Origin: an uncultured bacterium
GTDB lineage: Bacteria; Bacillota_I; Bacilli_A; RFN20; CAG-826
Length of the DNA: 64,000 bases
Reading direction: 5' to 3'
NCBI GenBank assembly: GCA_949284685.1
Contig: CASDWE010000002.1
Coordinates: 596,106-660,105, forward strand
Below, in pieces: positions 46,925-64,000 of this stretch (within the stretch, counting starts at the first letter, position 1; every line of letters begins with the position of its first letter). The position numbers and the translations under genes were made by a program. The notes under the pieces are model-generated. The model made no database searches, had not been told where the DNA came from, and saw only the letters and a list, made by a program, of their open reading frames with translations.

Positions 46925-46929
46925 ATTTT

Positions 46930-47006
46930 GGCCCGTTGGAGAAGTGGCTTAACTCATATGCCTTTCACGCATACACTCATGGGTTCGAATCCCGTACGGG
47001 TCACCA
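46930..47006 (+). tRNA. tRNA-Glu, anticodon UUC
   Basis: The acceptor stem ggcccgt/acgggtc has one G-U pair. The anticodon arm is tatgc-ctTTCac-gcata and the T-loop is ttcgaat, with an encoded CCA. Confidence 0.75.
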
Positions 47007-47019
47007 TTAGAAAGATACT

Positions 47020-47050
47020 CGCTAGAATTGTAATGATTCTAGCGTTTTTT
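47020..47050 (+). terminator. Rho-independent terminator after the tRNA-Asn/tRNA-Glu pair
   Basis: cgctagaat-tgtaatg-attctagcg has a 9-bp perfect stem and is followed by TTTTTT. Confidence 0.55.
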
Positions 47051-47274
47051 CATTATTCATAGGCATTTTTATTACTTTTTATAAGTTTTAAATATCTATG
47101 AAGTAGAATTTTTGACTTTAATACATATCAAAAATGCAAAAATGTGATACAATAAAAGCATTATTTAATGATAAGTTTTTATTTGAATTAACTATTGACG
47201 TTATCTTTAATATGTAATAAATGCCTGATTTCAAATAATAATTATTATTGAAGGAAAGATTGATTGACTAATTT

Positions 47275-48237
47275 ATGACTCAAGACGAAAAATTGATATA
47301 TTTAAATGAAATTGTTAAAAATAATTTTACAAGTGAATATAAGGGCCCTTTAATTTTGTATAAATATAGACCATTTGATGAGTATACTTTTGAAATGCTA
47401 GATAATGATTATATTTTCTTGTGTCCAGCCGAAAAAGAAGATGATGAAACTGAGTGCTTAACTACAACGAATCTTAATGAAATGTTAGATCCTAAGACTG
47501 GTAATTTATCAAAAAAATACTTAAATAAAATCGTTAGTTTGATAAAACCTAGTTCAACCGATAAGAATTATGAAATTGCTAAAGATAAAGTTTTTGAAAT
47601 TGCTGATAAAGAAGGTACTAATCCAATAATTTTTAATAAAGATTTTGCTATAGAACTTAAAAAAATGGCACCAGAAGGTACAGATGTTGGTCCAATAATA
47701 AAGGCAATTGAAAACATACCAGAAATGCTTAATAAGCCGGAAATGAGCAAAACTCTTGAACCAGCCTTCAAATTAGCAATTGATGCAAGAAAGAAAATTG
47801 GTATATGTTCATTAGCTGAAACAAATAATATAGATTATATGTGGAAGAATTACGCTCAAGAATCTTCTGGCTATTGTATTGAATATGACTTAAATGATTA
47901 TGAACTAGTAAAGAATATTTTACCTGTTATTTATCAAGATGAAAGAGAAACTAATATAATAGTTCAGTTTACAGGCACTATGCTAGGCTTACTTATATGT
48001 GCTATCAGCAAAGGATTAATACCTGCAGATGCGTCACACTTTATTAGATTATTCTTAACAAAATATAAGAAGTGGGAATATCAAAATGAGTGGAGATATA
48101 TAGGTAGTGCTAATGACAAGCCTAAGGCTCCAAAAGTAAAAACAATTTACTTAGGAAAGAATGTTACTGCTGAGAACGAAATAGAAATGAGAAAATATGC
48201 AGCTTTAAAGAGCATACCAGTTATAAAACTTAATTAG
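47275..48237 (+). CDS. DUF2971-like protein (defence-island associated), tentative
   Basis: The N-terminal region LILYKYRPFDEYTFEMLDNDYIFLCPAEKEDDETE resembles the ...lyKYrs...N-DpfE signature of the DUF2971 family. Confidence 0.45.
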   Translation: MTQDEKLIYLNEIVKNNFTSEYKGPLILYKYRPFDEYTFEMLDNDYIFLCPAEKEDDETECLTTTNLNEMLDPKTGNLSKKYLNKIVSLIKPSSTDKNYEIAKDKVFEIADKEGTNPIIFNKDFAIELKKMAPEGTDVGPIIKAIENIPEMLNKPEMSKTLEPAFKLAIDARKKIGICSLAETNNIDYMWKNYAQESSGYCIEYDLNDYELVKNILPVIYQDERETNIIVQFTGTMLGLLICAISKGLIPADASHFIRLFLTKYKKWEYQNEWRYIGSANDKPKAPKVKTIYLGKNVTAENEIEMRKYAALKSIPVIKLN

Positions 48238-48249
48238 GGAGGAAAGGCT

Positions 48250-49410
48250 ATGAAAATCCATAATATTCATATACATTTTGATTTTGGAAACTGTCTTGTG
48301 ATAAGAAACGATACTCCATTGCTTGATTGTTATCAAATCCAAAAAGATAATGCTAATGCAGCATTAATTGATAAAATTGAAAAAGAAACAAGTGGTAAGT
48401 TTGTATATTTCTTAATTGATATAAATCAAGCAAAGAACGTAAAAAGAAATATTTATATTGGAAAAACAAACAGCTTGATGAATCGAATTATCAGTCATAG
48501 AAAGAATAAAGACTGGTGGAATACGATTATCGTATTTGGTAACAAGTATTTATCTTCAGATGACATAGATGCTATTGAAAAGCTTCTTATTGAGGAATAT
48601 GAAAATTCTGATCTTTATACAATCAAAAATGATGTGGGATCTAATGCTAAATTAAGTGAGCAACATAATGATTATAGAGAATACATTGTTGATATTATGG
48701 ATTTTCTATCTTATGGAGTTACTAAAACTGTCATTACTCCTGAGACTAAAACTAATCAAGTGGTTATTCAAACAGCTGCTCAACCATTATCTAATTCTAG
48801 TAGACAAGAATCATTTAAATTTTCAATGTTAGATATAAAACCTGGTGAGATACTTTCATTTATTAACAATGATAAAGTAACTTGCGAAGTTGTTGATGAT
48901 AAGAATGTTAAATATAAAGGGAAGTTATATTCTTTAAGTTCTTTGGCAAAAGAATTATTGAATACTAATGTTCCTAAAAGAGGAACTGATTATTTTTTAT
49001 ATAAAGGTAAGACTTTAAGAGTTTTAAGAGATGAAAAGAATGGAATACAAGTTTCTGATGTTGAAAAAACTAATAATTGGATTATTTCTTGTAATAAAGA
49101 GTTCTATGATTTAGATAATGCATTAAACGAAATGAAAATTATTGATTTTAAACAAAATGCTAATGTTGAAGCTGGTAGTAAAGTATATATTTATTCATCA
49201 GGTGAAGATAAAAAATTAGTTTATATAACTGAAGCTGTTGTAGTTAATAAACCAGAACAGACTATAAATGACGATAAATATATAAAGAATAAGAGTGGTT
49301 ATGCTGATTCTAATAGATACATGGAACTTAAGCTAGTAAAAAAACTCGAATCTGATAAATTATCATTATCTGATTTAAAGAAAAATGGACTTAGAGGTAA
49401 CTTGCAATGA
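48250..49410 (+). CDS. GIY-YIG nuclease-family protein with a C-terminal extension (DUF4357-like), tentative
   Basis: FVYFLIDIN...NIYIGKTNSLMNRIISHRKN fits the GIY...YIG...R...H spacing. There is a GGGAGG RBS. Confidence 0.5.
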   Translation: MKIHNIHIHFDFGNCLVIRNDTPLLDCYQIQKDNANAALIDKIEKETSGKFVYFLIDINQAKNVKRNIYIGKTNSLMNRIISHRKNKDWWNTIIVFGNKYLSSDDIDAIEKLLIEEYENSDLYTIKNDVGSNAKLSEQHNDYREYIVDIMDFLSYGVTKTVITPETKTNQVVIQTAAQPLSNSSRQESFKFSMLDIKPGEILSFINNDKVTCEVVDDKNVKYKGKLYSLSSLAKELLNTNVPKRGTDYFLYKGKTLRVLRDEKNGIQVSDVEKTNNWIISCNKEFYDLDNALNEMKIIDFKQNANVEAGSKVYIYSSGEDKKLVYITEAVVVNKPEQTINDDKYIKNKSGYADSNRYMELKLVKKLESDKLSLSDLKKNGLRGNLQ

Positions 49411-49481
49411 CCTTGTAGAGTCCCTGTTGAATTACAAGCATATATAGATTTTATTATTAAGTAGAAAGGTGGTGAGACGAT

Positions 49482-51149
49482 ATGTCTTTATTTAAAGAAA
49501 AACCGATATTATTTGAAACAATGTACTTCAAAGGTGGAGATTATGCAGGTGCTTTCTTTTTAAAGAATGTCGTTGACAATCTTTCTTATATTGAAACAAC
49601 TTTATCTTCGTTTGATTACTCAATTAATTCTATTGAAGATTTGTTTGATTTTTTGTGGTTGTCAGACTTTATAGAGATGGCAAATGAATTAGATATATTT
49701 AAAATCGATGAGGATATTAAAACAAGAATTCGTAATCTTGCTGATTCTATATATACTAATCCAAAAGAGTTTATAAAGTTTATTAATAATGATCCTGAAT
49801 TGGTTTTTACAAAACAAAATATTAATAAACCAATGTATTGGCATCTTTACTTACCGAGAATGTTAAATCTATGCTTTAACAAATATTCAACATCATTGAG
49901 ACAAAATGTTTTTGACTTCATAGAAGAAAATCTATATTTGAATGTATTATCATCATTTGATGAGTACCAAAAGTATTATCTAAAACATAAAGAATCATTT
50001 AAAAAGTTATTTAATTCTTTGAAAGAAACCAGACCATTTGATGACCAGATTTATAAAAACTTTTTATTAAAAAAGAATGATATTATAGATCTCGAATTCT
50101 TAAAAGAACAAGCCACATTTATATGTGAAAGAGCATATGATGAAATAATAAAAATGGGGTTAGATTCAGAAAATAAAGAAATTATGCAAGCAGTTAATTT
50201 TTTTGATGAATATTATGAACTTGCTCGTTTTTATAAACTTAAATGTGCAAATAAATATAGTGCCTATAAACCAAAAATAGAAAAAGTGTTAAATGATTAC
50301 ATTGTTAAGCATGGTCAACATATGGATTTTGGTCCTATAGATTTAAAACCAGCGCTAGATATTTTTGAAAAATCAGATGATGTATATAGATTTTTTCAAC
50401 TAACACATAGCATGAAAGATGATAAATACTATAACAATTTAAATAATGTATTTGAAACTACTCCGCCTGATGGTTTATCAGAATTATTTCCACCGAGAGG
50501 TAAAGTTGGTAGTGAGAATTATCCTATCTATAGACAGGATCATATTGATTTATATCTTTCGATTAATTCGAGTATTTTAAATATGATAATAGTTCATCCA
50601 AAGTTATCTGTTGATTTTTCGAATTATATCGGTGCAATCTGCTCTCATGTTCAAACTAACTATTTTGATGATCAAATCAATATTTTCAAAGAAATCGGTG
50701 GAAGTTATGAGATGATTAGTAATCTTTATATGCTTAGAACAAAGAAGCAGAGTGACTCTTTATTGTATAAAGCATTATGTAACGGATGCTGTGTAAATTT
50801 ATGTGGAACCATTGAAAAGATACTAAGAAATATAATAATTAAAGAAGAATCAGACAATGTTTACATTGATGAAAGTAAACTCACATTAGGTCAAATTTTT
50901 AAAAGAACGCATAATTTATCATCAATTTCAAATGGTATTAAATACTATTTAAAATACATATTAATGACTGATGAAGAGACTTCACCAATAAAAGAAAAAA
51001 GACCAGGTAGGGATATAAGAAATTGGCAGATGCATAACGCAAATGATAAGTATGATAAAACAAGTTATCAATTATGCGTTGAACTATTCTATTTAACTAT
51101 ATCTCTTGTAGTTGATTTAGTTGTAGTATCGTTAAAATACGACGAGTAG
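49482..51149 (+). CDS. Hypothetical protein with a C-terminal HEPN-like Rx4H motif
   Basis: The 555-aa product has a C-terminal ...RPGRDIRNWQMHNANDKYD... (R-x4-H) motif, similar to the motif in the 58195 gene. Confidence 0.4.
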   Translation: MSLFKEKPILFETMYFKGGDYAGAFFLKNVVDNLSYIETTLSSFDYSINSIEDLFDFLWLSDFIEMANELDIFKIDEDIKTRIRNLADSIYTNPKEFIKFINNDPELVFTKQNINKPMYWHLYLPRMLNLCFNKYSTSLRQNVFDFIEENLYLNVLSSFDEYQKYYLKHKESFKKLFNSLKETRPFDDQIYKNFLLKKNDIIDLEFLKEQATFICERAYDEIIKMGLDSENKEIMQAVNFFDEYYELARFYKLKCANKYSAYKPKIEKVLNDYIVKHGQHMDFGPIDLKPALDIFEKSDDVYRFFQLTHSMKDDKYYNNLNNVFETTPPDGLSELFPPRGKVGSENYPIYRQDHIDLYLSINSSILNMIIVHPKLSVDFSNYIGAICSHVQTNYFDDQINIFKEIGGSYEMISNLYMLRTKKQSDSLLYKALCNGCCVNLCGTIEKILRNIIIKEESDNVYIDESKLTLGQIFKRTHNLSSISNGIKYYLKYILMTDEETSPIKEKRPGRDIRNWQMHNANDKYDKTSYQLCVELFYLTISLVVDLVVVSLKYDE

Positions 51150-51184
51150 TCTTGCATTTGTTTTTTATATTAATGAGGTAGAAT

Positions 51185-51901
51185 ATGAAATCATTGAATG
51201 AAATAAAGTTATCTATAATAGATGAATTATCTAAGAACAAAGCGTATGATTTACCAAATATATGTTCTGCACTAGGGTTGGAAGATGGTACTGAAAACGA
51301 AGCCTATAATAGTAAAAGAATGTATGTGAGTAAACGAATTAATCATCTTTCTAAAGTTGAAATAAATAAATTACTATATGCAATGAAAGAAAATTTTGAT
51401 ATTGACCTATTACCAGAAGAAAACTGTAACTTTGATAATCTAAAAAAAGTCTCTGAAGAAATAAATAGTGACTATATAAATGTACAAATAGAATTAATGA
51501 AAAAATTTCAAAAAGAAAATCCAACAGAGGCTATTGGTAAAGCGAAGGAACTTTTAGAAACTATTTGTAAAACCATTTTAAAAAGATTAAATATAGAATT
51601 CGATGAATCATGTGAAATCCAAGCCTTAGCAAAAGCAACTTATAAAGCCTTGAAATTATCTCCAGATGAAGTAAAGGATGGCCCTTTATCTCAAACAATA
51701 AAACAAATATTAGGTGGATTGAATAGTATTTCAAGTGGTTTGGCTAGTTTGAGAAACTCTTATGGAAGTGGACATGGCAAGGACGAAAGTTATAAGGGGC
51801 TTCCAGAAAGATATTCAAAGTTAGCAATTGGAAGTGTATCTACACTAGTGGTGTTTCTATGGGAAACAATGCTATATCAAATTGATAAAAATCAAGAGTA
51901 A
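51185..51901 (+). CDS. Abi_C-like abortive-infection protein (HEPN superfamily), tentative
   Basis: The C-terminal ...SSGLASLRNSYGSGHGKD... fits the Abi_C pattern R-N-x5-H-G. There is a GAGG RBS. Confidence 0.5.
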   Translation: MKSLNEIKLSIIDELSKNKAYDLPNICSALGLEDGTENEAYNSKRMYVSKRINHLSKVEINKLLYAMKENFDIDLLPEENCNFDNLKKVSEEINSDYINVQIELMKKFQKENPTEAIGKAKELLETICKTILKRLNIEFDESCEIQALAKATYKALKLSPDEVKDGPLSQTIKQILGGLNSISSGLASLRNSYGSGHGKDESYKGLPERYSKLAIGSVSTLVVFLWETMLYQIDKNQE

Positions 51902-52132
51902 ATAATTGTAGTGATTTTATTCTTAAACTTGCATTTAGTAGAAACTAATGGAATAAGTATGTTAAAACCTGTCGTTTGGGTGAAAAAAATAACATTAGCA
52001 AATTTAAGGTCAAATAACTGTAGAGTTATTGTAGGTTCAGTAAATTGATAAAATAACTCTTTTGTTATATAATTATACCGATAATCTAAAGTACCAGAAA
52101 GTTGAGGAAGGGCTCAAAGGAGGTACTTGTGT

Positions 52133-52363
52133 ATGGATTATCAAAAAGCCATATTAGATAAAGAAGCAACAAGTATTAAACTTAGGTCCCTTAGAATCAA
52201 AGCTAATCTAACACATGATAGACTAGCTGCATTACTTCAACTAAACACACCTCGTGTGATTTATGATTGGGAATGTGCAAAGAAGATGCCTAATGTTGAA
52301 AACTTGTATAATCTGGCTCTAATATTTAATATGAAAATGGAGGATTTACTTGTGACCAAGTAG
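52133..52363 (+). CDS. XRE-family helix-turn-helix transcriptional regulator
   Basis: The HTH_3 core LRSLRIKANLTHDRLAALLQLNTPRVIYDWECAKKMPNVENLYNLALIF is present. An AAGGAGG RBS lies 9 nt upstream of the ATG at 52133. The track's 52127 start is a TTG. Confidence 0.7.
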   Translation: MDYQKAILDKEATSIKLRSLRIKANLTHDRLAALLQLNTPRVIYDWECAKKMPNVENLYNLALIFNMKMEDLLVTK

Positions 52364-52672
52364 ATCCTTCTTTTTTATTTTTGAACTATAGTACATTTTT
52401 TATTCCTGGATTTATTGTTAAAATAATAACAGTATCTATGAATATGTCCGTTGATATTGAAATAAATTTCAATAATGTGATATAATTATATAAAGATACA
52501 TATGCAGGTTCTGAAACAGTGGAGTAAGAACTTTACCTATATGAAATGTTGGAACAAATCCTATGGTTGGGATATACCATATGAGGAGTAAACCAATAGT
52601 TAAAAGCTAATTTTCAAGAGTGGTATTGCGTGTCTAAACAAAATAACATAATAAGAGGAAGAATGTTATTGA

Positions 52673-52708
52673 AGTGGCGATAGGCTAATACCTACCGTCA
52701 CTTTTTTG
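52673..52708 (+). terminator. Intrinsic terminator (attenuator-like) at the end of a ~370-nt leader, 7 nt upstream of the operon RBS
   Basis: agtggcgatagg-ctaata-cctaccgtcact forms a 12-bp stem with one G-U pair and one mismatch, followed by TTTTTTG. The AAGGAGG RBS and the ATG at 52731 follow. Confidence 0.5.
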
Positions 52709-52730
52709 TATATAAGGAGGTGTCAATAAC

Positions 52731-53660
52731 ATGAAAAAGAAAAGCAAAGTCATCGGTAAAGACTATGATAAATTAGAAAAAGATAATAGATTCGATCAGA
52801 TTGATTATTATGGTCTTATTGCTAAAGATGGCAGAATTAAAATTGACACAAAGAGATATAAAAAATTCTTTACTATTCCTGATACTAAAATAGAAAGAAG
52901 ACAATCTGTTTATTACCTTCCAACAAAGCAACATAGATCCGATTATAAATGTAATTGGTTCAGAGATTTGTTAGCAGGTTATAAACAATTGTGGTTTAGA
53001 GAATATAAAAGTTTTATTGATAGCATTAAGACACCAAAGCAAGTAGAAGATAGTGCGAGATTAGATTATTTAGCTGATGGTGTTCTTGAGTACGATGAAG
53101 CTAATGCAAAAGCATTTATTGCAGGTATGAAAAGAAGTGCTGACTATAAAGTGATTATTAAATCTTTATATGCTCAATTCTTCCATCAAATGATGTCTAG
53201 CATTGATGCTTTATGTTTAAAGATGTTAACTGCCTGTGGTTATAAAGAAGAAGATTATACTAAGAAACAATTTGATATTTATATTCAAGGTTTGCAAGGT
53301 AATAATGCATTATCATTCAGACAATACGATAATTATCAATTATATGATAGAGCATTTACTGTTTGGAACTTCCTAAAGCATAACTCTCTTAGATCATATA
53401 AGATCTTGAAGCAATGGTATCCTAAAATGGTATGGGATCCAGAAGAGAAATATCAAAATGGTGAATCTGCACTTACTGTTGTTAAATTAGATGAGAAATT
53501 CATCTTAGATTGTATTGATAACTTACATTTATTCTTTGATGAATTATGTGCGAGAGCTTTTGGTGAAAATGCTGATGATGCACAATGGGATTATGATGAT
53601 TACTTCTTAGACGTCGTACAAGATGAAATAGATGTTATTGTTAATCCACTAGGTATATAG
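52731..53660 (+). CDS. Hypothetical protein, first gene of the helicase operon
   Basis: The 309-aa product has a strong AAGGAGG RBS and no recognisable catalytic motif. Confidence 0.45.
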   Translation: MKKKSKVIGKDYDKLEKDNRFDQIDYYGLIAKDGRIKIDTKRYKKFFTIPDTKIERRQSVYYLPTKQHRSDYKCNWFRDLLAGYKQLWFREYKSFIDSIKTPKQVEDSARLDYLADGVLEYDEANAKAFIAGMKRSADYKVIIKSLYAQFFHQMMSSIDALCLKMLTACGYKEEDYTKKQFDIYIQGLQGNNALSFRQYDNYQLYDRAFTVWNFLKHNSLRSYKILKQWYPKMVWDPEEKYQNGESALTVVKLDEKFILDCIDNLHLFFDELCARAFGENADDAQWDYDDYFLDVVQDEIDVIVNPLGI

Positions 53661-53672: not shown

Positions 53673-56600
53673 ATGGCATATTTATTTCTATCTTTTACTG
53701 ACAGATTGAATAATGGTTCTAATTTTAAAAGTGAATTATATAATCAATCTCTAACTGAACAATTTGAATATATCCAAAAAAGAATCCCTCTTGAAAGACA
53801 AGTTAGTAGCTTTAGATCATTTATAGAAGAATGCTTTACTACAGGAATGATGAAGAAATATTACATTTCTTGCCCTAACTTCTTAAGAGAAAAAGAATCT
53901 TCAAAAAGTGGTAAAGTGCAATATCTTGATAATGTAGTTGTACGTCCAGAATTAACTTTATCAATGAGAAAAGTGTTACCTGATAATCAAAACATAATTC
54001 TTATCGGTAAGATTGTAGAAGGTGGCAAACAAAAACATTTAGAGGTAAAAGGGATACAATTAATAGATTCCTCTATGTCTTCACCTAATGATATTGTTAT
54101 TTCTGCAGCTGCATGTAATTCATTTTCTGAAGAAAAAAGAGCAAGCATGTATGGTGGTACATTTGCTGTTAACATATGGTCGGTTCCAAATGTTCCTTAT
54201 GAAGATACTGTATTTACACCTAATTTTGTATATGAACTAATTCAATCATGCTGGACTGTATCTAAGCCAGAGCAAATTAGACAATCTTATGATATTTGGA
54301 ATAAATACATTGAATTTAGAAAGTACTATCTTCAAGAACAATCAAAGCGTAATTTTAAATTAGATAGAGCTATGTTTGTTGAAGCATATGCCGTCAATAG
54401 AAAAGACTACAAAAAGAATGCTTCAATTTATGATGAATATCTACTTGATGGACGAGATGAGTTTAAATGGGGAGATATGATTGTTTTATCTGAAAAGATA
54501 GAAGATGCTGAAGAATTCCCACTTATTAGATTAGATATTGAAAGAAATAGAAAAGCTTTTAATGAAGCTAAAGTTACAAAACGTGGAAAATTAGTTAATG
54601 AAGAAGAACGTAAGATTCGTTCATTATCTAGTGATAATGTATTTATTACTGCTATTGATCCTGAAAGTAAATCACAGCATAACGATAGACAGGTTACTTT
54701 TGGTGAATTATTAAATGCTGGATATGCATTAGGTGATAGATTTAAAATTGTTTCTTATGATATCGAACCTACTGAGCATTTAGAAGAATTAGATCAAGTA
54801 TATACAAAAGATATTGATAACTCATATAAAAATATAGATGCTAAGTTTGAAAAGATTATTAAAGAAGAAGTAAAACAAGCAGTTACTTTATATGAAAAAG
54901 AATTAAATAAACAAGCTAAAGAAAGAATTGATTCTTATAAAAATGAACTAGATAGTTCTTTAGAACAAGATGTTTTAGAAAATAAAGATAAAAATATTAT
55001 TAGTTTAATTGATAAAAAGAAAAAAGAAATTGAAGCTAATGTTAAAAAGAATAATAAACAAGATAAAAAAGAAAAAGATAATGAATATGCATTAAGAATA
55101 AAAGCGTTAATTGAAGATGAAATATCTAAAATTGATGTCAAGTCATATTATGTTGAAAGAAATTCTAAATTATTACAAGATAATGCGAATAAGATTGAAG
55201 TTGAACTAAAGAGATTATTGGCACAGTATGAAGTAAAAAAGAATTCTGAAATTACTAACAAATATAAAGATGATGTTAGAAATGAAAAGATTAAATCAAA
55301 AGAAGAACTTGATGCTAAGTTAAAGTCTGATAAAGAAAAAGCAATTGAAGAAGAAACAATTATTAGATTCTCGTTATATTTTAGATTAGGTGATTCTAAT
55401 AATTTTATTTCTGATAAGCAAAAAAAGGTTGTAGATTCTTGTGAATATATTGTTTATGATAATCGTGCTGAAAAGGCAAAGATATCAAGACAAGAAGCAG
55501 CTTTAGATAATTTCTATTCTGGATATGTTAAGAATCCATATCTTTCAACATATCTTTTTAATCCTGAAGAATTAGATACTGTTAAAGCTGAACCTAGCGA
55601 TTGGATATGGTATTTAGATTCTCTTAATGAAAAGCAAAAAGAGGCTGTAAGAAAAGCAGTTTCAAGTAACGGTATATTCTTACTTCAAGGTCCTCCAGGA
55701 ACTGGTAAAACACAAGTAATTGCTGAAACAGTAGCTCAGTTAATTAAAAAAGGTAAGAAGGTATTAATTTCATCAGAAACTCATAAGGCAATTGATAATG
55801 TATTTGAAAGATTACCTAAGATTGCTGAAATTGTACCTATTAGATTAATTCCTTCTAATAATGATAAAAAGAAAGAAAACGAATATGATCCAAAATTCCT
55901 AGTAGATAATTTCTATTTAAATATTTCTTCTAATATGAAGAAAGCTGTTAATAGATATAAGAATTTTGAAAAGAACAAAATAGAATTTGCTGAAAACTTT
56001 GATAAATTAAAGTTGGCAAAAGCCAAAATAGAAAAATCTCAAAAGGTTTTAGATAAGGCTAACGAAGAAATCAAAAAGTTTGAAGACAATGCTAAAGACA
56101 TTAATTCTAAGATATCAGTATTAAATGATAAAAAGGACTTGGTCAGAATTGATATTGATATCTTAAGAAGAACTAAACGTCATATTGAAAATGATAATTT
56201 GAGACCTGATGAAGATGTAAAGGTTGACTTGATTGTTGATGTAAGAAAGAAACTAGAACCTTTATTTGAAAAAGATGTTTATATCGATGATGATTTAGGC
56301 CAATTATTAAAAAATATTAATTTAATTAAAAATGATGAAATAGAACGTGAGTTAGCAGTCATTAATCCTGAATCCAATAAAACTATTCTTGAAGTTAAGA
56401 AAAATGATTTAAAGGCTGAATTAAATAAATATGTTGATGAATTGGGAGACATTATTAATCCTAATAATGAAGAAAAAGTTGAAGAAATTAAAAATGAATT
56501 AAGAAAGGTTTTAAAAGAACTTAAGGCTGAATCAGTTGACATATCTTTAAGCGATTTAAAACTTAATAAGATTTTTAATTATTCATATTTAGTTGCTAAT

Positions 56601-58202
56601 ATTTCTCTAATTCCAGAAGTTATTAGAACTGTAAAAGATAGAATTATTGAGATTAAATCTTCAACGATAGAAGTTCTTAATAAAGAATTACGTACTATTG
56701 AAGATAAACAAGCAGAACTAGATAAAGAAATAGATTCATTAAAGCAACAAATAAAAGTAATTAATGAAAATATTATTGATATTCAAGAAAGAAATGATGT
56801 TAAAGATATTCAAGAAGCTAAATACAAGCTTGAGAATGATTTAATAAAATTCTTTAAAGATTTTGAAATTGCTGAACCATATAGAGATGTAGATGAAGGT
56901 CTAAAGATTATTAAACGTAAATGGTCTGAGCTTGAAGATGATTTCCAAGCGAAAGAACAAGAAAATAGAGAAAAAATACCTATGTATGAAAAGATCGCAA
57001 ATTACATCACTAGTGAAGATGTAATTGAAGAAGATAGAAAGGTATTTACTAAAGACTTGTTTGAAAATGCTAATGTATTTGGTATTACATGTACATCTAA
57101 CGATAGATTCAGTGGAAGAAATGTTGATGCATTATCTGAATATAATATCGATGAGATTGATATTAAGTCTGTAGGTATTGATGTAGTTATTATTGACGAA
57201 GTTTCTAAATCAAGTTTTATAGATTTATTGATACCTATTCTTTATGGTAAAACAGTTATTCTAGTTGGAGACCATAGACAATTACCTCCAATGTATGAAT
57301 TCTCAAAATTAAGAGATGATGATTTTGAAGGATTAGATGAGACAATTATTAATAAAGAAATTAATAAAGAGTTCACTAAATTGTATGAAGAGTGTTTCTT
57401 CAAAACTCTATTTGAAAGAATACCAGATAGTTATAAAACTATGTTAGTTCAACAATATAGATGTCATGAACATATTATGAATGTATTTAACCATTTCTAT
57501 AAAGGCGAATTAAAACTAGGTTTTGCAGGTCAAAACAATAATAAACATCATAATGTTAAATTACTATCAAATGGTAGAAATATTATCGAACCAGATAAAC
57601 ATATTTATTTTGTTGATTGTAAGCAAAATGAAACGCATGAAGCTGATTCAACATCTATGTACAATACTGGTGAAGCTAGAGTTGTAGTTGAATTAATCAG
57701 AAAATTAAATACATACTTTAAATCGCATCCTGAACTTGAAAAGTTAAGCATTGGTGTTATTTGTACTTACGGAGACCAAGCTAGAAAAGTAAAAGAATTA
57801 CTTAAGAGTGAAAAGGTTAAAACTGATGCATTTAAAACTGACGTTGAAAAGATGATAGTCTCTACAGTCGATGATTTCCAAGGCGATGAAAGAGATATTA
57901 TTATCTTGACTACAGTTAGAAATCCTGAGAATCCAAAAAGAAGTAATCCTGGATTCATCTTGGCTTATCAAAGAATTAATGTTGCCTTATCTAGAGCTAG
58001 AAGAATGCTTGTTATGGTAGGTAATAGAAAATACCTAGAAGAAAAAGGTGTGATAGATCTACCAGATGTCTATGGTCGTGTTGGTAAAGAGCAACGAAAC
58101 TTTAGAGTTTATGAAGAAATCCTATCTACTATTGAACGATATGGTAAGGTCATTGAGGATATTGATGTATTAGATGATAAGGAGGCGAGAATAAATGGAT
58201 AA
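53673..58202 (+). CDS. Giant Upf1/DNA2-like superfamily-1B helicase (1509 aa) with an unassigned ~640-aa N-terminus and a ~500-aa Lys/Glu coiled-coil insertion
   Basis: Motif I is LLQGPPGTGKTQ and motif II is VVIIDEVSKSSF. VGDHRQLPPM is motif III and QYRCHEHI is motif IV. VSTVDDFQGDERDIIILTTVR and YQRINVALSRARRMLVMVGN are motifs V and VI, the AAA_11/AAA_12 architecture. There is a GGAGGG RBS. Confidence 0.8.
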   Translation: MAYLFLSFTDRLNNGSNFKSELYNQSLTEQFEYIQKRIPLERQVSSFRSFIEECFTTGMMKKYYISCPNFLREKESSKSGKVQYLDNVVVRPELTLSMRKVLPDNQNIILIGKIVEGGKQKHLEVKGIQLIDSSMSSPNDIVISAAACNSFSEEKRASMYGGTFAVNIWSVPNVPYEDTVFTPNFVYELIQSCWTVSKPEQIRQSYDIWNKYIEFRKYYLQEQSKRNFKLDRAMFVEAYAVNRKDYKKNASIYDEYLLDGRDEFKWGDMIVLSEKIEDAEEFPLIRLDIERNRKAFNEAKVTKRGKLVNEEERKIRSLSSDNVFITAIDPESKSQHNDRQVTFGELLNAGYALGDRFKIVSYDIEPTEHLEELDQVYTKDIDNSYKNIDAKFEKIIKEEVKQAVTLYEKELNKQAKERIDSYKNELDSSLEQDVLENKDKNIISLIDKKKKEIEANVKKNNKQDKKEKDNEYALRIKALIEDEISKIDVKSYYVERNSKLLQDNANKIEVELKRLLAQYEVKKNSEITNKYKDDVRNEKIKSKEELDAKLKSDKEKAIEEETIIRFSLYFRLGDSNNFISDKQKKVVDSCEYIVYDNRAEKAKISRQEAALDNFYSGYVKNPYLSTYLFNPEELDTVKAEPSDWIWYLDSLNEKQKEAVRKAVSSNGIFLLQGPPGTGKTQVIAETVAQLIKKGKKVLISSETHKAIDNVFERLPKIAEIVPIRLIPSNNDKKKENEYDPKFLVDNFYLNISSNMKKAVNRYKNFEKNKIEFAENFDKLKLAKAKIEKSQKVLDKANEEIKKFEDNAKDINSKISVLNDKKDLVRIDIDILRRTKRHIENDNLRPDEDVKVDLIVDVRKKLEPLFEKDVYIDDDLGQLLKNINLIKNDEIERELAVINPESNKTILEVKKNDLKAELNKYVDELGDIINPNNEEKVEEIKNELRKVLKELKAESVDISLSDLKLNKIFNYSYLVANISLIPEVIRTVKDRIIEIKSSTIEVLNKELRTIEDKQAELDKEIDSLKQQIKVINENIIDIQERNDVKDIQEAKYKLENDLIKFFKDFEIAEPYRDVDEGLKIIKRKWSELEDDFQAKEQENREKIPMYEKIANYITSEDVIEEDRKVFTKDLFENANVFGITCTSNDRFSGRNVDALSEYNIDEIDIKSVGIDVVIIDEVSKSSFIDLLIPILYGKTVILVGDHRQLPPMYEFSKLRDDDFEGLDETIINKEINKEFTKLYEECFFKTLFERIPDSYKTMLVQQYRCHEHIMNVFNHFYKGELKLGFAGQNNNKHHNVKLLSNGRNIIEPDKHIYFVDCKQNETHEADSTSMYNTGEARVVVELIRKLNTYFKSHPELEKLSIGVICTYGDQARKVKELLKSEKVKTDAFKTDVEKMIVSTVDDFQGDERDIIILTTVRNPENPKRSNPGFILAYQRINVALSRARRMLVMVGNRKYLEEKGVIDLPDVYGRVGKEQRNFRVYEEILSTIERYGKVIEDIDVLDDKEARING

Positions 58203-60327
58203 GTTTAAATTAGAAACTTCTATGCAATTTCCATTCTTTAAATTGAATGAACTTGCTATATATTCAGAAGTTAAAAAGCCTAGTGGTGTAGCCTATATTT
58301 TACTAGTACTTATCAGTGAGTCAAAAAATAAAAATGATAGATTATCTAAAGTGCTAGAGAATTTTGGTATACCTAAATCTTTACATTATATTTTTGCTGA
58401 TAATGTTCAATACCTTATGAATCAGGGAATACTAGAAGAATTTAACTTTTACAAAACTGAATTTGATAGTTATCTTATAGGATCATTTCAATTTACTTCA
58501 AAAGGTAAAAAAATATTTGCAGAAGAATCTATTCCTACAGGTGTTAATAAAGAATTAAAGGTTGCAGTCTTTTATGATATTGCAATGAATGCATTATCTT
58601 TAAAAATGGATGTTGATTTAGATCCTAAACCATTAATGGACTGTGCAATTACACCTGAATTTATGAATTCATTTAAATGTGAAAAGAATGTAGAAAATTT
58701 CTTAAACCTTCAAAAAGGTAAAGGAATAGGCATAAAGAAAGAAGAAATAATTACTAGCGTAGAGTTATTAAATCAAGAAAATTGGATTGGAAAATATGAT
58801 TGTGACATGAATATCAAAGGCGATGATATAGAAATCAAATTTGATGAAGCGTTACTACAAAAATTCTTTGATGCTAATTACAATCAAGAAATGGTTAATT
58901 TAGCCATATCATATAAAAACAAGTTCAAGTTTAAATCTTCTTTTAAAGATAATCTAAAACTAAGTAGTTATGGTTTTGATAGAATTGCTGGAATTATTAT
59001 TCCAAAAGAAATTGATGATGTGTTAAAGCAAAAAAATCAATTATTACTTACAAAAGGTAATTATAAAACTTCAAATGGTTATATGGTTACTAGTGCTGAT
59101 TCACTTGCTGGATTTGATGATACAATTGAATTCATACAAGTTGATATGCATGATTCGATTTATGCATATATTCCAGGCAACTTTAATTTTAATAATAGTA
59201 TATTTGGAACTATTACAATTCCTTTGGCTGTTAAAATTAAACTAACTGATGAGGAATTGAAAAATGTTATTAGACCATATGTACTTTCTTTATCTTCATA
59301 TAGCGAAGATAACTTTAGAGAGCTTGTTAAGGTAACAAATATCACTGATGACTTAAAGTTAGCAAAAGAGATTATTGAAGGTTATGTTAATAAAAATGCA
59401 GAAAGCAATATTGTCTTGTTAAATGAAATGAAGCCATATGCAATATCTAATGGTGGTATTTCAAATATCTATAGAGAGCTATTAGAAAAGAACTATAACA
59501 ATTATATGGATAATTTAACTGAAGACAATCTTGAAACAGCATTAAAGATAACTGCTTCAGTTCCTAAATTCCTAAATATTCCAAATAAGGACGTTTTATC
59601 TAAAATCTTTAAGAATGTAAAGGCTAGAAGTGAATTGAAGATTTATGAAACTTTAGTAAATAAAGGATTTGATAAATCACTAGTTGTTCTATATGTTAAC
59701 CCAGTAAATGAAATACTTAAGTTGAGAGATTCTGAAGAGAAGAGTCTTATTGATTTAATTAATTATGATGATGCTTTGGAAGAAATGAAACGCATAACAA
59801 ATATAAGTGATTATAAGAGTTATTTGTATGATGAAGAAAAGATAAATCATAATGAATTTAAAACAAATTATAACAAAGCATTCAATCTTCAAAAGAATAT
59901 TTTAGTGTTTAAAAATGGCAATGAAGCATTATTTGCAAATTATGATGGTTTTATGAAGCTGTTCTCTACAATTAATGATGATATTAATATGGTTGAGTCA
60001 GCTCTTAAAAATCCTAATAATCTGAAACTAGATTTAATTGAAAAGAAAATATCTAGTGGTGAATATCAATTTGTATTTGTTAATCTATCTGCAAAATTAG
60101 AAACAATTCTTAAAAACAAGTATAAATTAGAAGGTAAATTATCTGACATGCTAAATGATGCAAGATCTAATGGTATAATCGATAAAAAGATTGTCAGTGA
60201 TTTGCATGATTTTAGAGATAACAGAAATGCAAATGTTCATCCTGAAGATAGAACGTCTAACTATGATGCAAATGATCTCAGAAGATGGGCAAAAGAAATC
60301 TTTGATTTGGAGGTGAAAAAGAAATGA
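58195..60327 (+). CDS. Hypothetical 710-aa protein with a C-terminal HEPN-like (DUF4145-type) Rx4H motif
   Basis: The C-terminal ...LHDFRDNRNANVHPEDRTSNYD... (R-x4-H) is present. There is an AAGGAGG RBS. It overlaps the helicase gene by 8 nt. Confidence 0.45.
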   Translation: MDKFKLETSMQFPFFKLNELAIYSEVKKPSGVAYILLVLISESKNKNDRLSKVLENFGIPKSLHYIFADNVQYLMNQGILEEFNFYKTEFDSYLIGSFQFTSKGKKIFAEESIPTGVNKELKVAVFYDIAMNALSLKMDVDLDPKPLMDCAITPEFMNSFKCEKNVENFLNLQKGKGIGIKKEEIITSVELLNQENWIGKYDCDMNIKGDDIEIKFDEALLQKFFDANYNQEMVNLAISYKNKFKFKSSFKDNLKLSSYGFDRIAGIIIPKEIDDVLKQKNQLLLTKGNYKTSNGYMVTSADSLAGFDDTIEFIQVDMHDSIYAYIPGNFNFNNSIFGTITIPLAVKIKLTDEELKNVIRPYVLSLSSYSEDNFRELVKVTNITDDLKLAKEIIEGYVNKNAESNIVLLNEMKPYAISNGGISNIYRELLEKNYNNYMDNLTEDNLETALKITASVPKFLNIPNKDVLSKIFKNVKARSELKIYETLVNKGFDKSLVVLYVNPVNEILKLRDSEEKSLIDLINYDDALEEMKRITNISDYKSYLYDEEKINHNEFKTNYNKAFNLQKNILVFKNGNEALFANYDGFMKLFSTINDDINMVESALKNPNNLKLDLIEKKISSGEYQFVFVNLSAKLETILKNKYKLEGKLSDMLNDARSNGIIDKKIVSDLHDFRDNRNANVHPEDRTSNYDANDLRRWAKEIFDLEVKKK

Positions 60328-61423: not shown

Positions 61424-63238
61424 ATGTCTTTACAAAATAGTTTTAATAAAATCAGAAGAAATGCTGGAATTAAAAAATGTGTCATGATTGATGGCAATGT
61501 TGGTGACGTTTATTTAAATGAAAAAAATAATATCGTCACATTAAGAGAATATCTTGAAGCAATGTTCAAAGATATGGATTATCAAGACATTGTTTACTGG
61601 GATAGAGTTGAAGGTGCAACTGGTGCAATTGATAAGCTTACTTTAACAGATGAAGTTGAAGTAGAAGGTGATGCATATGATTTAGGTGATGAAGAAGAAA
61701 CACCTAAAGCACAACAAGGCTTATTTAAATCACCAGCTGAAATCTTAAATGTTGTTTATAAGAATGTAATTGATAAAAAGAAAAAAGTAGCTTTTATTAT
61801 CAATTGGTCTGAATATTTATTCAGTGTTAATGGGTTAAGCGATGATGAAAGACAAAATATTACTTTATTAGGTAAAGCTCTAAAGGATAGAAAAGTAGAT
61901 TATTTAAACACTGACTGCAACGAAAGTGTTGTTGTCATTATTTTAAATAAAGCGTCTGGATTACCATTATCTTTCTATCAAGGAAATCCTGAAGTTGAAA
62001 TTGTAACATTACAAAAACCAGATAGAGAAGAAAGAAAACAAATGATTCAAAAGATAGAAGATTCATTTGAAGTTAGATTAAAATCTGGTACTAGCTCATT
62101 GCTTGATAATGAAAATATCGATTGTATTGATATGCTTGAAGATTTCACTAATCGTGAGATTATTCAATTATCAAGAATGTCTAGAAAAGAAGATAAGATG
62201 ACTTTTGATAAGTTATTCTATTTATTCAAATATGGTGAAAAAGAAAATCCATGGGAAAAATTAGAACAATCTAGAGTTAAGAATATCAAAAAAGAATTAT
62301 CTGACAGAGTTATAGGTCAAGAAGAAGCAATTGATAAAATTGAAAAGACTGTTGTTAAAGCATATATGGGTTTAACAGGCCTTCATAAAACTTCATCTAG
62401 ATCAATGCCAAAAGGTGTATTCTTCTTTGTTGGTCCTACTGGTGTAGGTAAAACTGAGCTTTCAAAGGCTTTAGCTAAATTCTTATTTGGTGATGAACAA
62501 GCTTGTATTAGATTTGATATGTCTGAATATGCTCAAGAGAATAGTGATCAAAAATTAATTGGTGCAGCTCCTGGATATGTTGGATATGAAGAAGGTGGCC
62601 AATTAACTAATGCAATTAAAGAACATCCATTCTCAGTTGTATTATTTGATGAAATTGAAAAGGCTGCAAAACCTAATCCACGTATTCTAGATATTTTCTT
62701 ACAAATTCTAGAAGATGGTCGTTTAACAGATTCTAAAGGTGAAACTGTATACTTCAGCGACACAATTATAGTATTCACATCTAACTTGGGTGCTAACCAA
62801 GTTCAAGCATCATCTGATAAAGAAGGTGTAGCAAAAGAATTCATTAAGATTGTAAAAGATTACTTTGATAATGAATTAAAGAGACCAGAATTATTAGGAC
62901 GTATCGGATACAATAATATCGTTCCATTTAATTTCATTCAAGATAGAGATTTCCAAGTTAAGATTTGTAAGAACAAACTAAAACCAGTTATCAGGGGAAT
63001 AGAAGAAAAATATAAACTTGAATTGGAATTTGAGAAAGAATTGGAAGCTATCGAATATATCTTAAAAGCTGTAGATTCATCTAAAGGTGGTCGTGATATT
63101 TTAAATGCTATCAATGATAGATTATTAGATCCACTAGCAATGTTCTTATTTGAAAATAAAGATGAATTACGTTCTTTAAAAGGAAGCAGAATTATTACAA
63201 AGGTAACAAAAGATGGATTCAGCTTTGACTTCGATTAA
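61424..63238 (+). CDS. ClpA/ClpB-D2-like AAA+ ATPase with an unassigned ~300-aa N-terminal domain
   Basis: RVIGQEEAI...FFFVGPTGVGKTELSKALA...LIGAAPGYVGYEEGGQLT...VVLFDEIEKAAKPNPRILDIFLQILEDGRLTDSKG...VFTSN is the canonical ClpB second nucleotide-binding domain, with sensor and D2-small domain. There is an AGGAGG RBS. Confidence 0.75.
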   Translation: MSLQNSFNKIRRNAGIKKCVMIDGNVGDVYLNEKNNIVTLREYLEAMFKDMDYQDIVYWDRVEGATGAIDKLTLTDEVEVEGDAYDLGDEEETPKAQQGLFKSPAEILNVVYKNVIDKKKKVAFIINWSEYLFSVNGLSDDERQNITLLGKALKDRKVDYLNTDCNESVVVIILNKASGLPLSFYQGNPEVEIVTLQKPDREERKQMIQKIEDSFEVRLKSGTSSLLDNENIDCIDMLEDFTNREIIQLSRMSRKEDKMTFDKLFYLFKYGEKENPWEKLEQSRVKNIKKELSDRVIGQEEAIDKIEKTVVKAYMGLTGLHKTSSRSMPKGVFFFVGPTGVGKTELSKALAKFLFGDEQACIRFDMSEYAQENSDQKLIGAAPGYVGYEEGGQLTNAIKEHPFSVVLFDEIEKAAKPNPRILDIFLQILEDGRLTDSKGETVYFSDTIIVFTSNLGANQVQASSDKEGVAKEFIKIVKDYFDNELKRPELLGRIGYNNIVPFNFIQDRDFQVKICKNKLKPVIRGIEEKYKLELEFEKELEAIEYILKAVDSSKGGRDILNAINDRLLDPLAMFLFENKDELRSLKGSRIITKVTKDGFSFDFD

Positions 63239-63767
63239 GTTTAATGTAGCATATATAAAATTATGTACTAAAACTGAAGGTCCATATAAGAGATGCTGTA
63301 TTTGGTTTCAAGGATGTAACATTAATTGTAGAGGATGTTGTAATAACGATTTACAACCATTAGTTCCAAATCATATAGTTACATTAAAAGAACTTATCGA
63401 TATAGTTAAAGAAGCTAAAGATAAGTTTGATATAGAAGGTATAACTCTTAGTGGTGGTGAACCTTCTTTACAAACTGGTTTAAAATTCTTCAATAATGAA
63501 ATTCATAAATTAGGATTAGGAATTATTATGTTTTCAGGAAAAAATAAACAACTTCTTGACAAAGAACTAGTTGAATCTGTTGATTTATTAATAGATGGTC
63601 CATTTATTGAAGAACAACTTGATGATAAAAGAGTTTTATTAGGTTCTAAAAATAAACGATTATCTTTTATTACTGATAGATATAAAAAAGAAGAAAATTA
63701 TTTCAATAATCCTATAGCTATAGAAGAAGTAACAGCTGAGGATTATATCTTCATAAATGGAGACTGA
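63213..63767 (+). CDS. Small radical-SAM / 4Fe-4S activase-like protein (NrdG/QueE-like)
   Basis: The cluster motif FQGCNINCRGC is CX3CX2C. ITLSGGEP (SAM-binding) is present. The 184-aa size is typical of NrdG-type activases. Confidence 0.7.
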   Translation: MDSALTSIKFNVAYIKLCTKTEGPYKRCCIWFQGCNINCRGCCNNDLQPLVPNHIVTLKELIDIVKEAKDKFDIEGITLSGGEPSLQTGLKFFNNEIHKLGLGIIMFSGKNKQLLDKELVESVDLLIDGPFIEEQLDDKRVLLGSKNKRLSFITDRYKKEENYFNNPIAIEEVTAEDYIFINGD

Positions 63768-63769
63768 TT

Positions 63770-64000
63770 ATGGATAAAAAGAGAATAGAAAGTGAAATGA
63801 GAGAATTAGAACTTAAAATTCATTATCATTTCAATGACATATCTTGGCTTGCTAAAGCTATGGGTTCTATAAAAGTACCTGTTCCAGGTCAAGGAAAGAA
63901 TGGTTCTGAATATTCTAATGAAGGCTTGGCTACTGTTGGTGATACTATATTAAAATCAGTTATTGCTGATAAGTTTTATAGAGAAGGAATAAGAACCAAA
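63770..64000 (+). CDS. Divergent RNase III-like protein, N-terminal 77 aa; the gene continues beyond the window
   Basis: LELKIHYHFNDISWLAKAMGS...SEYSNEGLATVGDTILKSVIADKFYREG aligns with the RNase III N-terminal LxxxLGYxFxDxxLLxxALTHxS...NERLEFLGDAxLxxVVxxxLY. The ERLEFLGD signature has diverged to EGLATVGD. The ATG is 2 nt after the radical-SAM stop. Confidence 0.6.
   Translation, partial: MDKKRIESEMRELELKIHYHFNDISWLAKAMGSIKVPVPGQGKNGSEYSNEGLATVGDTILKSVIADKFYREGIRTK

Follow-up and report, generated by a model that had tools for sequence, protein, structure and literature searches.

A large Upf1-like helicase and a predicted RNase partner head a five-gene cassette, a candidate conflict system, in an uncultured bacterium

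The DNA analysed here is a 64,000-nucleotide (nt) stretch, called the window below, from an uncultured bacterium (GTDB lineage Bacteria; Bacillota_I; Bacilli_A; RFN20; CAG-826; GenBank assembly GCA_949284685.1, contig CASDWE010000002.1, positions 596,106 to 660,105 of the forward strand). It encodes a helicase of 1509 amino acids (aa), followed by the genes B710, C362, D604 and E184, whose families are called B, C, D and E. Judged by its sequence, the helicase is an intact Upf1/DNA2-like enzyme of superfamily 1B (SF1B) in which a very large helical insertion separates motif I from motif II. Together with B, which ends in a predicted HEPN RNase domain, and with C, D and E, it forms a cassette that recurs in bacteria and archaea. 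The coordinates of all features are collected in Table 1.

An earlier note, made from the letters of the window alone, had described the protein as a 1509-aa Upf1/DNA2-like SF1B helicase with motifs I to VI intact. This description was correct because Pfam, the PDB matches and the invariant motifs all agree with it. Pfam identified AAA_11 (1.4e-28) and AAA_12 (2.5e-43), and a comparison with PDB sequences matched IGHMBP2, Sen1, Dna2 and Upf1 (E ~1e-20 to 1e-23; Upf1, 1.8e-20). The PDB matches are confined to the two RecA-like parts, in which motifs I, Ia and II to VI are found as in Upf1-like SF1B enzymes, and the likeness to Dna2 is limited to aa 1168–1455 plus the motif I region. The core residues of the motifs were invariant in 23 of 23 homologues with 55–90% identity, and the motifs were still the best-conserved blocks across 27 sequences with identity down to ~26%. 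The Walker A lysine, expected near residue 678, is present as K679, and 492 aa separate Walker A from Walker B. In motif Ia, by inspection, H704 stands where Upf1 presumably has N. Within the pre-helicase linker (aa 566–650), R606, G617, N621, P622 and F629 are invariant. The defence-system model MkoA (PADLOC PDLC03920) matched the helicase part at 3.1e-93, the better of its two stretches being aa 1020–1490.

The PADLOC Nhi models gave no match to the window helicase, and no Ser/Thr kinase domain was found among its Pfam matches at E <= 1. Neither a phage collection nor an E. coli collection contained a full-length relative. The NCBIfam models for a 'PLuB system helicase-like protein', ProA and Hhe were rejected, as their matches were at the level of the helicase core and far below cutoff (PLuB, 171 bits against 999). 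A PLuB identity was rejected as well: neither the neighbouring proteins nor those of the Moellerella cassette described below matched PLuB models, and no paper mentioning PLuB was found.

Outside the motor, two long stretches of the protein are charged and apparently helical. The first (aa 386–565) lies inside the N-terminal 640 aa, which had been taken for a single region of unknown function. A long helix that starts at aa 367 ends the AlphaFold2 model of the N-terminal part. The second is the insertion in RecA1 (aa 751–1110), which contains 42% K/E/R/D and 2.8% P+G and shows a raised 3.5-residue periodicity. The K/E coiled coil that the earlier note had seen between motifs I and II is thus real as a charged helical insertion, but its length is ~360 aa rather than ~500. 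The insertion is kept in all helicase homologues, the proteobacterial ones included. A large helical insertion after Walker A has been described for CnuH (PMC11090510), and the window helicase shows this helical or coiled-coil feature. The label 'coiled coil' is used here on the strength of composition, periodicity and the family description in PMC11090510.

The N-domain of the helicase (aa 1–385) appears to be peculiar to this family. A profile of aa 1–390 found no match among PDB sequences, and the domain had no Pfam match and no significant match to a solved structure. When the N-domain profile was run against 5.8 billion proteins, only fragments of the same helicase family were recovered. 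An exhaustive hidden Markov model (HMM) search of 1.84 billion cluster representatives gave 167 matches, and because all of these were fragments or proteins of 1250–1770 aa with the domain at the extreme N-terminus, we consider the N-domain exclusive to this helicase family. Among 23 N-domains with identity down to 16%, only Q30, N87, G112 and W209 were invariant, and R91, K126, G127, T182, R356 and P366 were nearly so. The block SAAACNSFSEEKRASMYGGTFAVNIWSVP (aa 144–172, SAAACNSF...), singled out before as conserved-looking, falls where the N-terminal region is least conserved (aa 151–180 average 0.30 identity in close homologues and 0.17 in distant homologues), and the suggested D...E-x-K arrangement in YDEYLLDGRDEFKWGD (aa 253–268) varies freely. 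The proposal of an N-terminal nuclease effector was therefore not borne out: neither an acidic nor a D-ExK constellation is conserved, and Pfam, the PDB and the PADLOC Nhi models gave no match. A PD-(D/E)xK or other nuclease in the N-terminus was rejected on the conservation pattern together with the lack of any family or structure match. Binding or sensing is the probable role of the domain. Its first alpha/beta half might be RelE-like, which we treat as a lead and not as a result; the lead is somewhat strengthened by the report of an N-terminal RelE/colicin D-like 'RTL' domain in CnuH helicases (PMC11090510). An SmpB-like OB domain is the other N-terminal feature of the type II/III CoCoNuT helicases.

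The gene directly downstream of the helicase encodes B710. In 20 diverse members of family B, R677-N678-x3-H682 and R674 (B710 numbering) were invariant, so that B carries the Rx4-6H motif that marks the four-helix domain of HEPN RNases. PF13643 (DUF4145), which has been placed among the HEPN families (PMC3710099), was matched by 16 of these 20 members, with the window protein at 24.0 bits against a cutoff of 23.1 bits. The N-domain of B710 was related by hhalign to that of the PIN-type partners found in proteobacteria (93.9%, E 1.5e-7), and the PIN partner from Acinetobacter matched PADLOC MkoB across its N-terminal 190 aa. For this reason, the B family is considered to share its N-domain with Mokosh MkoB while its nuclease differs. 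B710 itself had no match to PADLOC MkoB at E <= 0.01. Of the features of a CnuE-type partner, the HEPN C-terminus is present in B, and the N-domain links to MkoB only through the PIN-type partners.

Two variants of B have more than one HEPN copy. In a metagenome-assembled genome (MAG) of Planctomycetota (locus L063, 15559-18498), B is 979 aa long and its C-terminal ~190 residues match the HEPN-part profile twice, as a tandem HEPN that recalls the two-HEPN CnuE of type III-A CoCoNuTs. A weaker second copy is seen in B of L083 (7254-9893).

To follow the helicase and its neighbours, one genome per species was scanned (185,579 species) and gene order was read with an open reading frame (ORF)/BLAST script, which gave 79 distinct loci; loci are cited here by number, as L001. 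The order helicase-B-C-D-E was found in essentially every locus with enough downstream DNA, and all five genes were full length in 52 of the 79. Two homologues looked up individually had this downstream order as well. B is ~710 aa, C ~362 aa, D ~604 aa (AAA_2) and E ~184 aa (radical S-adenosylmethionine, SAM). The partners diverge from their window counterparts in step with the helicase (Spearman rho of the identities, 0.93 for B, 0.89 for C, 0.97 for D and 0.77 for E), and C, D and E are co-inherited with the helicase-B pair. In the window, the helicase and B overlap by 8 nt, B and C by 4 nt, and D and E by 26 nt; 11 nt lie between C and D and 2 nt between E and the next gene. Because starts and stops overlap or nearly abut, helicase-B-C-D-E is regarded as one operon.

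Host genomes come from at least seven phyla, bacterial as well as archaeal, with a patchy distribution over Bacillota, Bacteroidota, Campylobacterota, Spirochaetota, Planctomycetota, Pseudomonadota and methanogenic archaea. A large serine recombinase flanks the cassette in 15 of 71 loci from different clades, and other flanking genes each occur in at most six. BrxL, the Lon-like protease of BREX, lies a few kilobases upstream in four loci of different clades (L006, 4865-6883; L044; L056; L065), which suggests a recurrent co-location of the cassette with BREX. The housekeeping alternative that the earlier note had allowed for, a repair-helicase N-terminus with orthologues in core-genome contexts, was not encountered, because the cassette has mobile or defence-related flanks and no conserved core-genome neighbourhood. 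PADLOC 2.0 and NCBIfam 20 contain no models for B, C or the cassette. The literature search, outside which many subscription papers lay, gave no description of ClpB or radical SAM with HEPN or PIN, Upf1 and anti-phage activity.

The cassette also exists with a different nuclease. A tblastn search of plasmids with D604 recovered full-length relatives of 37–46% identity on the same plasmids as the best helicase matches. Five plasmids of alpha-, beta- and gammaproteobacteria (Moellerella, Polaromonas, Acinetobacter, Leisingera and Photobacterium) carry the cassette, annotated in order as an 'AAA domain-containing protein' (1284–1631 aa), a 'PIN domain-containing protein' (~620–820 aa), a hypothetical protein (~370 aa), an 'AAA family ATPase' (~620 aa) and a '4Fe-4S single cluster domain-containing protein'. 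The plasmid B protein has PIN_4 (Pfam) at its C-terminus, where B710 has HEPN; the HEPN version is that of the window and ~75 other loci. By HMM and BLAST comparison, the HEPN and PIN cassettes are homologous in the helicase core and insertion, the C-terminal half of C, and all of D and E. The helicase N-domains of the two cassette types, aligned by hhalign at 78.8% and E 1.7e-5, are probably homologous too, and MkoA matched the Moellerella helicase at 7e-102 (PADLOC). The Moellerella cassette occupies 178,826-188,779 of plasmid pW18-2-a (NZ_CP093250.1). The plasmid cassettes lie near ArdA, integrases and insertion sequence (IS) elements. Just 3' of the cassette on Acinetobacter pNDM1_010055 (L089, 11718-13700) are genes for a 173-aa AAA ATPase, a 328-aa radical-SAM protein and a 162-aa hypothetical protein, and a further radical-SAM gene stands upstream of the Photobacterium cassette (L091, 1-478).

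Related helicases occur outside five-gene cassettes. A more distant, two-gene form was found in Methanomethylophilaceae and Thermoplasmata archaea and in a Faecalibacterium MAG; it has a helicase with the same N-domain and a B-like protein, and lacks C, D and E. On a plasmid of Aulosira laxa (L087, 8245-14524), a 1478-aa helicase with a ~600-aa insertion, mis-annotated as 'IF-2 domain', is followed by a PLD protein in a Mokosh-like arrangement. On an Aliarcobacter plasmid (L088, 7834-12094), a 927-aa helicase precedes a 491-aa protein of unknown nature, between a Qat system and a dGTPase.

The three remaining genes of the cassette were compared with known families in the same way. C362 had no family relative and no PDB relative. 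Most of its invariant residues are in the C-domain, among them C315 and a glycine, G290, that is predicted to lie at the tip of a hairpin, and the C-terminal half is conserved in the proteobacterial cassettes. A reading of C362 as a DUF1257/DUF2997 fusion was discarded, as DUF2997 was matched by 1 of 21 members (E 0.005) and the resemblance is visual only.

In D604, the second tier is an intact ClpB-D2-like ATPase with a D2-small domain (Walker A GPTGVGKT, Walker B DEIEK, pore loop GYVGYEEGG, sensor-1 TSNLG), matching AAA_2 at 2.6e-51 and ClpB TIGR03346 at 1.7e-75, far below the TIGR03346 cutoff. The conserved N-domain of D604 (aa 1–280) gave a profile that weakly matches the AAA domains of paraplegin, Vps4-like proteins and Rpt3 (E ~0.01) and has no P-loop, which suggests a degenerate first AAA-like tier. 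A match of D604 to McrB was of the generic AAA level (NCBIfam E 0.0043, 15.8 bits, cutoff 637). D604 also partly matches DolB of Dodola (1.1e-20) and PDC-M37B (1.1e-33) through the ClpB-D2-type AAA+ core; these matches cover only the ATPase core, and D604 differs by its extra degenerate N-terminal tier. No homologue of DolA or PDC-M37A was found among the neighbouring proteins scanned with PADLOC.

E184 matched Fer4_12 at 8.6e-23 and NrdG at 2.1e-17, the latter below cutoff (63.5 bits against 126). Conserved FQGCnxxCxGCcN (Cx3Cx2C) and sGGEP motifs were found in 61 sequences of the family, so that E184 resembles the NrdG/PflA activases in size, Fer4_12/Radical_SAM domains, Cx3Cx2C and GGE, the combination expected of a small activase. 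Its matches to the pVip models of prokaryotic viperins are weak, and it is much shorter than viperins. By inspection, neither a canonical RVxG[FYW] glycine loop nor an NrdD/PflB-type substrate was found among the cassette proteins. Two candidate glycyl-radical sites were rejected: W-D/N-R-V-x-G-x-S/T-G in D is non-canonical, without the flanking small residue and aromatic, and [KR]-x-[SA]-G290 (KASG) in C does not fit the canonical motif.

A sixth gene follows E only in the window's clade. Its full-length orthologues in L001, L005, L006, L016, L019 and L023 are 166–172 aa long and match PF14622/PF00636. This short RNase III (window 63770-64000; L001 20189-20689) has NEGLATVGD in place of the canonical ERLEFLGD, so that the second glutamate is replaced by alanine, and it has no double-stranded RNA-binding domain. 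It presumably resembles the Mini-III enzymes.

Table 1. Features of the window in and around the helicase cassette (nucleotide positions are those of the window; motif positions are residues of the helicase).
Feature	Position	Strand	Remarks
tRNA-Asn and tRNA-Glu	46849-47006		upstream of the cassette
DUF2971 gene	47275-48237		upstream of the cassette
Weak GIY-YIG-like protein	48250-49410		upstream of the cassette
555-aa protein without family	49482-51149		upstream of the cassette
Abi_C/AbiJ-like HEPN protein	51185-51901		directly upstream of the cassette unit
Promoter-like site before HTH ORF	52045-52073		score 11/12
Small helix-turn-helix (HTH) ORF	52134..52364	+	76 aa, reads as XRE-type; opens the block of DNA that related loci share
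Terminator-like hairpin after HTH ORF	52339-52370		
Promoter-like site and ~240-nt leader	52457..52730	+	site 52457-52486, extended -10, 11/12
U309	52731..53660	+	309 aa; variable accessory gene, 12-nt gap to the helicase
Helicase gene	53673..58202	+	ATG start, 1509 aa; MkoA/CnuH-like Upf1-family SF1B enzyme
Helicase N-domain	53673..54827	+	aa 1-385; family-specific
First charged helical (coiled-coil-like) region	54828..55367	+	aa 386-565; 48% K/E/R/D, no P or G over 180 aa
Pre-helicase linker and first part of RecA1	55368..55922	+	linker aa 566-650; motifs I and Ia in aa 651-750
Charged helical insertion in RecA1	55923..57002	+	aa 751-1110, ~360 aa, between motif Ia and motif II
Rest of RecA1 and RecA2	57003..58199	+	aa 1111-1509; motifs II-VI
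Motif I / Walker A	aa 673-680		GPPGTGKT; lysine is K679
Motif II / Walker B	aa 1172-1176		VIIDE
Motif III	aa 1199-1206		GDHRQLPP
Motif IV	aa 1261-1265		QYRCH
Motif V	aa 1398-1408		TVDDFQGDERD
Motif VI	aa 1433-1444		QRINVALSRARR
B710	58195..60327	+	effector partner; MkoB/CnuE-type N-domain, long middle region, predicted C-terminal HEPN RNase
B710 N-terminal domain	58210-58710	+	aa ~6-172, MkoB/CnuE-type
B710 HEPN RNase domain (predicted)	60079-60276	+	aa 629-694
C362	60324..61412	+	helical bundle aa 1-260 and small conserved alpha/beta C-domain
D604	61424..63238	+	two-tier AAA+ protein
E184	63213..63767	+	small radical-SAM enzyme, NrdG/PflA activase type
Start of short RNase III-domain gene	63770..64000	+	clade-specific sixth gene, runs past the window end; translation MDKKRIESEM...NEGLATVGD

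The cassette was compared with the known systems that contain similar helicases. Mokosh combines a COG1112 helicase with a PLD nuclease, type I MkoA carries a kinase domain, and mutants of the helicase ATPase or of PLD lose defence (10.1101/2022.05.11.491447). The cassette resembles Mokosh type I in its homologous, MkoA-like helicase core, in the order of a helicase and then a separate nuclease, and in the MkoB-type N-domain of the partner. It differs in that the nuclease is HEPN or PIN and no PLD partner is present, in that the helicase is not fused to a Ser/Thr kinase and has its own family-specific N-domain, and in the three extra genes C, D and E. The earlier note had been reminded of both Nhi and MkoA; the relationship to MkoA holds, but a Nhi-like single chain, with an N-terminal nuclease fused to the helicase, was not found. 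The remark that the neighbouring genes fit neither system was mistaken, as the next gene downstream encodes a nuclease partner with a MkoB/CnuE-type N-domain and HEPN. Because this downstream partner carries the predicted RNase, the architecture is that of a helicase with a separate effector, as in Mokosh type I and CnuH/CnuE and not as in Nhi. Neither the PD-(D/E)xK nuclease of Dna2/AddAB, which has an Fe-S cluster in Dna2 and AddB, nor their core-genome context was found, the flanks being mobile or defence-related.

CnuH is UPF1-like and typically followed by a gene for CnuE, in which an elongated winged HTH and a coiled coil are joined to a nuclease of the HEPN, PLD or Vsr kind (PMC11090510). 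The same paper predicts that CnuH and CnuE assemble into a complex and target RNA, and it defines CoCoNuTs by the McrB-like GTPase CnuB together with the McrC protein CnuC. The architecture of CoCoNuT types II and III is the closest that we found, the likeness being to the published description and not to CnuH or CnuE sequences. However, the cassette is without CnuB, CnuC and TerY-P and has a ClpB-D2-like AAA+ protein, C and a radical-SAM protein. No match to McrC or DUF2357 was found in the cassette proteins (Pfam, NCBIfam), nor was the CnuB/CnuC pair, and PMC11090510 mentions neither ClpB nor radical SAM. Taken together, the cassette looks like a variant of the helicase-nuclease (Mokosh and cnuHE-like) systems and a member of neither named system, undescribed in the literature searched; it is placed outside Mokosh and CoCoNuT because PLD, kinase and McrB/McrC are absent and no prior description was found.

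With moderate confidence, we propose that the helicase is the ATP-driven motor and sensor subunit of a mobile, multi-gene, RNA-acting conflict system, most likely anti-phage or anti-plasmid. The helicase would translocate 5'->3' on foreign, aberrant or ribosome-associated RNA, and its N-domain and two long helical arms would hold and regulate partner B. Recognition of a target may then license, through helicase activity, the HEPN or PIN RNase of B. HEPN domains normally have to dimerise before an active site can form. Cleavage of RNA would block the invader or arrest the cell, and in the window's clade the short RNase III may add cleavage of double-stranded RNA. C, D and E would form a second, co-evolving module. 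In the least speculative version, D is a hexameric unfoldase that would remodel either the helicase-RNase complex or some protein substrate, C would be its adaptor or substrate, and E may supply a SAM-derived radical step on protein, nucleotide or RNA. Our confidence in any specific role of C, D or E is much lower than that in a helicase-RNase conflict system.

Several points speak against this proposal. RNA as the helicase substrate is suggested only by the RNase partners, because Upf1-family helicases such as Dna2 and Nhi also act on DNA. Defence, RNA targeting and complex formation of the cassette are each predicted, and the putative link between B710 and MkoB is transitive, running through the PIN-type partners. 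The RNase is not universal in the wider family, because the archaeal and Faecalibacterium B-like proteins (L077, L080, L081, L082 and L084; ~365–700 aa) do not conserve the HEPN motif. The radical step proposed for E is the weakest part of the proposal, its chemistry not being deducible from sequence. The glycyl-radical chemistry usual for NrdG/PflA-type enzymes would fit poorly, because the strict aerobes Acinetobacter and Polaromonas carry the sister cassette.

A stronger and only tentatively held version of the proposal, possible rather than probable in our judgement, is a new immune system in which an RNA-surveillance helicase-RNase pair is coupled mechanistically to an AAA+ unfoldase and radical-SAM chemistry. 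For example, E might install a radical or modification on C (G290/C315) or on RNA or a nucleotide, and D might then unlock the RNase, or act on a target of viral or ribosomal origin by threading or remodelling it. The opposite view is that only the first two genes matter, as a divergent Mokosh type I or cnuHE system, and that C, D and E are an independent neighbouring system or cargo. The MkoA-like helicase and the link of the partner N-domain to MkoB agree with this view, as do the two-gene archaeal and Faecalibacterium relatives and the single downstream effectors on the Aulosira (PLD) and Aliarcobacter plasmids. However, C, D and E keep the same order in overlapping or adjacent frames in 52 of 52 full loci and in five proteobacterial plasmids even though the effector differs there, their divergence follows that of the helicase (rho 0.77–0.97) unlike that of the upstream gene, and full-length D occurred in ten plasmid records among the matches listed, all of those inspected being the cassette. 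We therefore think it rather unlikely that C, D and E are unconnected with the pair. A single-chain nuclease-helicase like Nhi or Dna2, in which the first 640 aa would form a DNA nuclease of the PD-(D/E)xK type directed at phage replication intermediates, is very improbable. Dna2 is indeed among the PDB matches of the core and the protein is large with an uncharacterised N-terminus, but the D...ExK is not conserved beside the four invariant N-domain residues, no Pfam, PDB or PADLOC nuclease family matched the N-domain, aa 386–565 form a charged helix instead of a globular domain, and dedicated RNase partners are present.

Two further readings concern function. A machine for housekeeping or stress RNA quality control, not immune, might be a bacterial analogue of Upf1-SMG6 or serve ribosome rescue with a disaggregase. 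The pairing of a Upf1-like helicase with a PIN_4 or HEPN endonuclease would mirror Upf1 with the SMG6 PIN domain, which we take to belong to PF13638; the helicase family is shared, and the PIN_4 pairing of the proteobacterial version is functionally analogous to that of nonsense-mediated decay. ClpB-type ATPases are chaperones, and a link of CnuH N-domains to tmRNA and the ribosomal A-site has been proposed (PMC11090510). The likeness to Upf1-SMG6 is an analogy only, however, since the cassette is without a CH domain and Upf2/3 partners and lies in a mobile, prokaryotic context. It is rare (79 loci in 185,579 species genomes) and patchy, with recombinases, IS elements and plasmids at its flanks, Abi and BREX genes adjoin it in place of a conserved core-genome context, and the swap of effector domains and shuffling of upstream genes are typical of conflict systems, so that we regard a housekeeping role as unlikely. 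Small weight is likewise given to an addiction or abortive-toxicity module that would stabilise a mobile element in the manner of a toxin-antitoxin pair, with the RNase as a toxin held by the ATPases. HEPN and PIN domains often serve as toxins (PMC3710099), and the cassette, which has an HTH regulator upstream of it, is found in association with serine-recombinase elements and plasmids. A set of five large, co-evolving genes, one of them for a 1500-aa helicase, nevertheless far exceeds the needs of known addiction modules, and this reading would be compatible with defence by abortive infection.

Helicase-nuclease pairs of the Mokosh and CnuH/CnuE types are widespread, and the cassette provides a compact natural experiment: one helicase scaffold with swappable HEPN or PIN warheads, RNase III in one clade, a minimal two-gene archaeal form, and an expanded form with a ClpB-like unfoldase and an activase-type radical-SAM enzyme as obligatory recruits. 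If the cassette is defensive, the immune repertoire would gain non-viperin radical-SAM chemistry and protein unfolding, along with a tractable prokaryotic counterpart of Upf1-endonuclease RNA surveillance. If the coupled immune system described above is real, no defence system before it would have brought together a ClpB-type unfoldase and an activase-type radical-SAM enzyme. Its warheads, HEPN and PIN, are interchangeable, and its conservation reaches from Mollicutes-like Bacillota to Proteobacteria and into methanogenic archaea. The copies on proteobacterial plasmids (Moellerella, Acinetobacter, Photobacterium) suit standard hosts.

Upstream of the cassette, the region 46849-51901 looks like a tRNA-associated defence island of several independent insertions. 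Nucleotide homology with L006 and L019 begins at ~51895, directly after the Abi_C gene, and the transferred unit is therefore considered to start with the small HTH ORF and U309. The equivalent 76-aa gene in L005 carries PF01381 HTH_3 (Pfam). In the leader before U309, a hairpin with a U-run (~52674-52706, GUGGCGAUAGG-CUAAUA-CCUACCGUCAC-UUUUUU) lies just 5' of the U309 ribosome-binding site, and the leader RNA folds better than shuffled sequences (z = -2.4), which suggests a putative attenuator of the U309/helicase operon. The leader had no match in Rfam, which finds only the tRNAs in the window.

U309 had no Pfam, PADLOC or NCBIfam match. A 90%-identity cluster that joined U309 with a 1540-aa helicase was set aside, as BLASTP found no similarity; it is probably a clustering artefact or a gene-fusion artefact in some assemblies. 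The gene is found in 18 loci, and its divergence is uncoupled from that of the helicase (rho -0.48), with U309 ~90% identical where the helicase is only 37% identical. Elsewhere its slot is occupied by an unrelated 170-aa protein with HTH and a coiled coil, and both forms shuffle between helicase clades. The gene upstream of the helicase may thus be a swappable regulator or an anti-anti-defence module. Examples of upstream genes are seen in L049 (5303-6232), L067 (9050-9979) and L001 (9460-9972).

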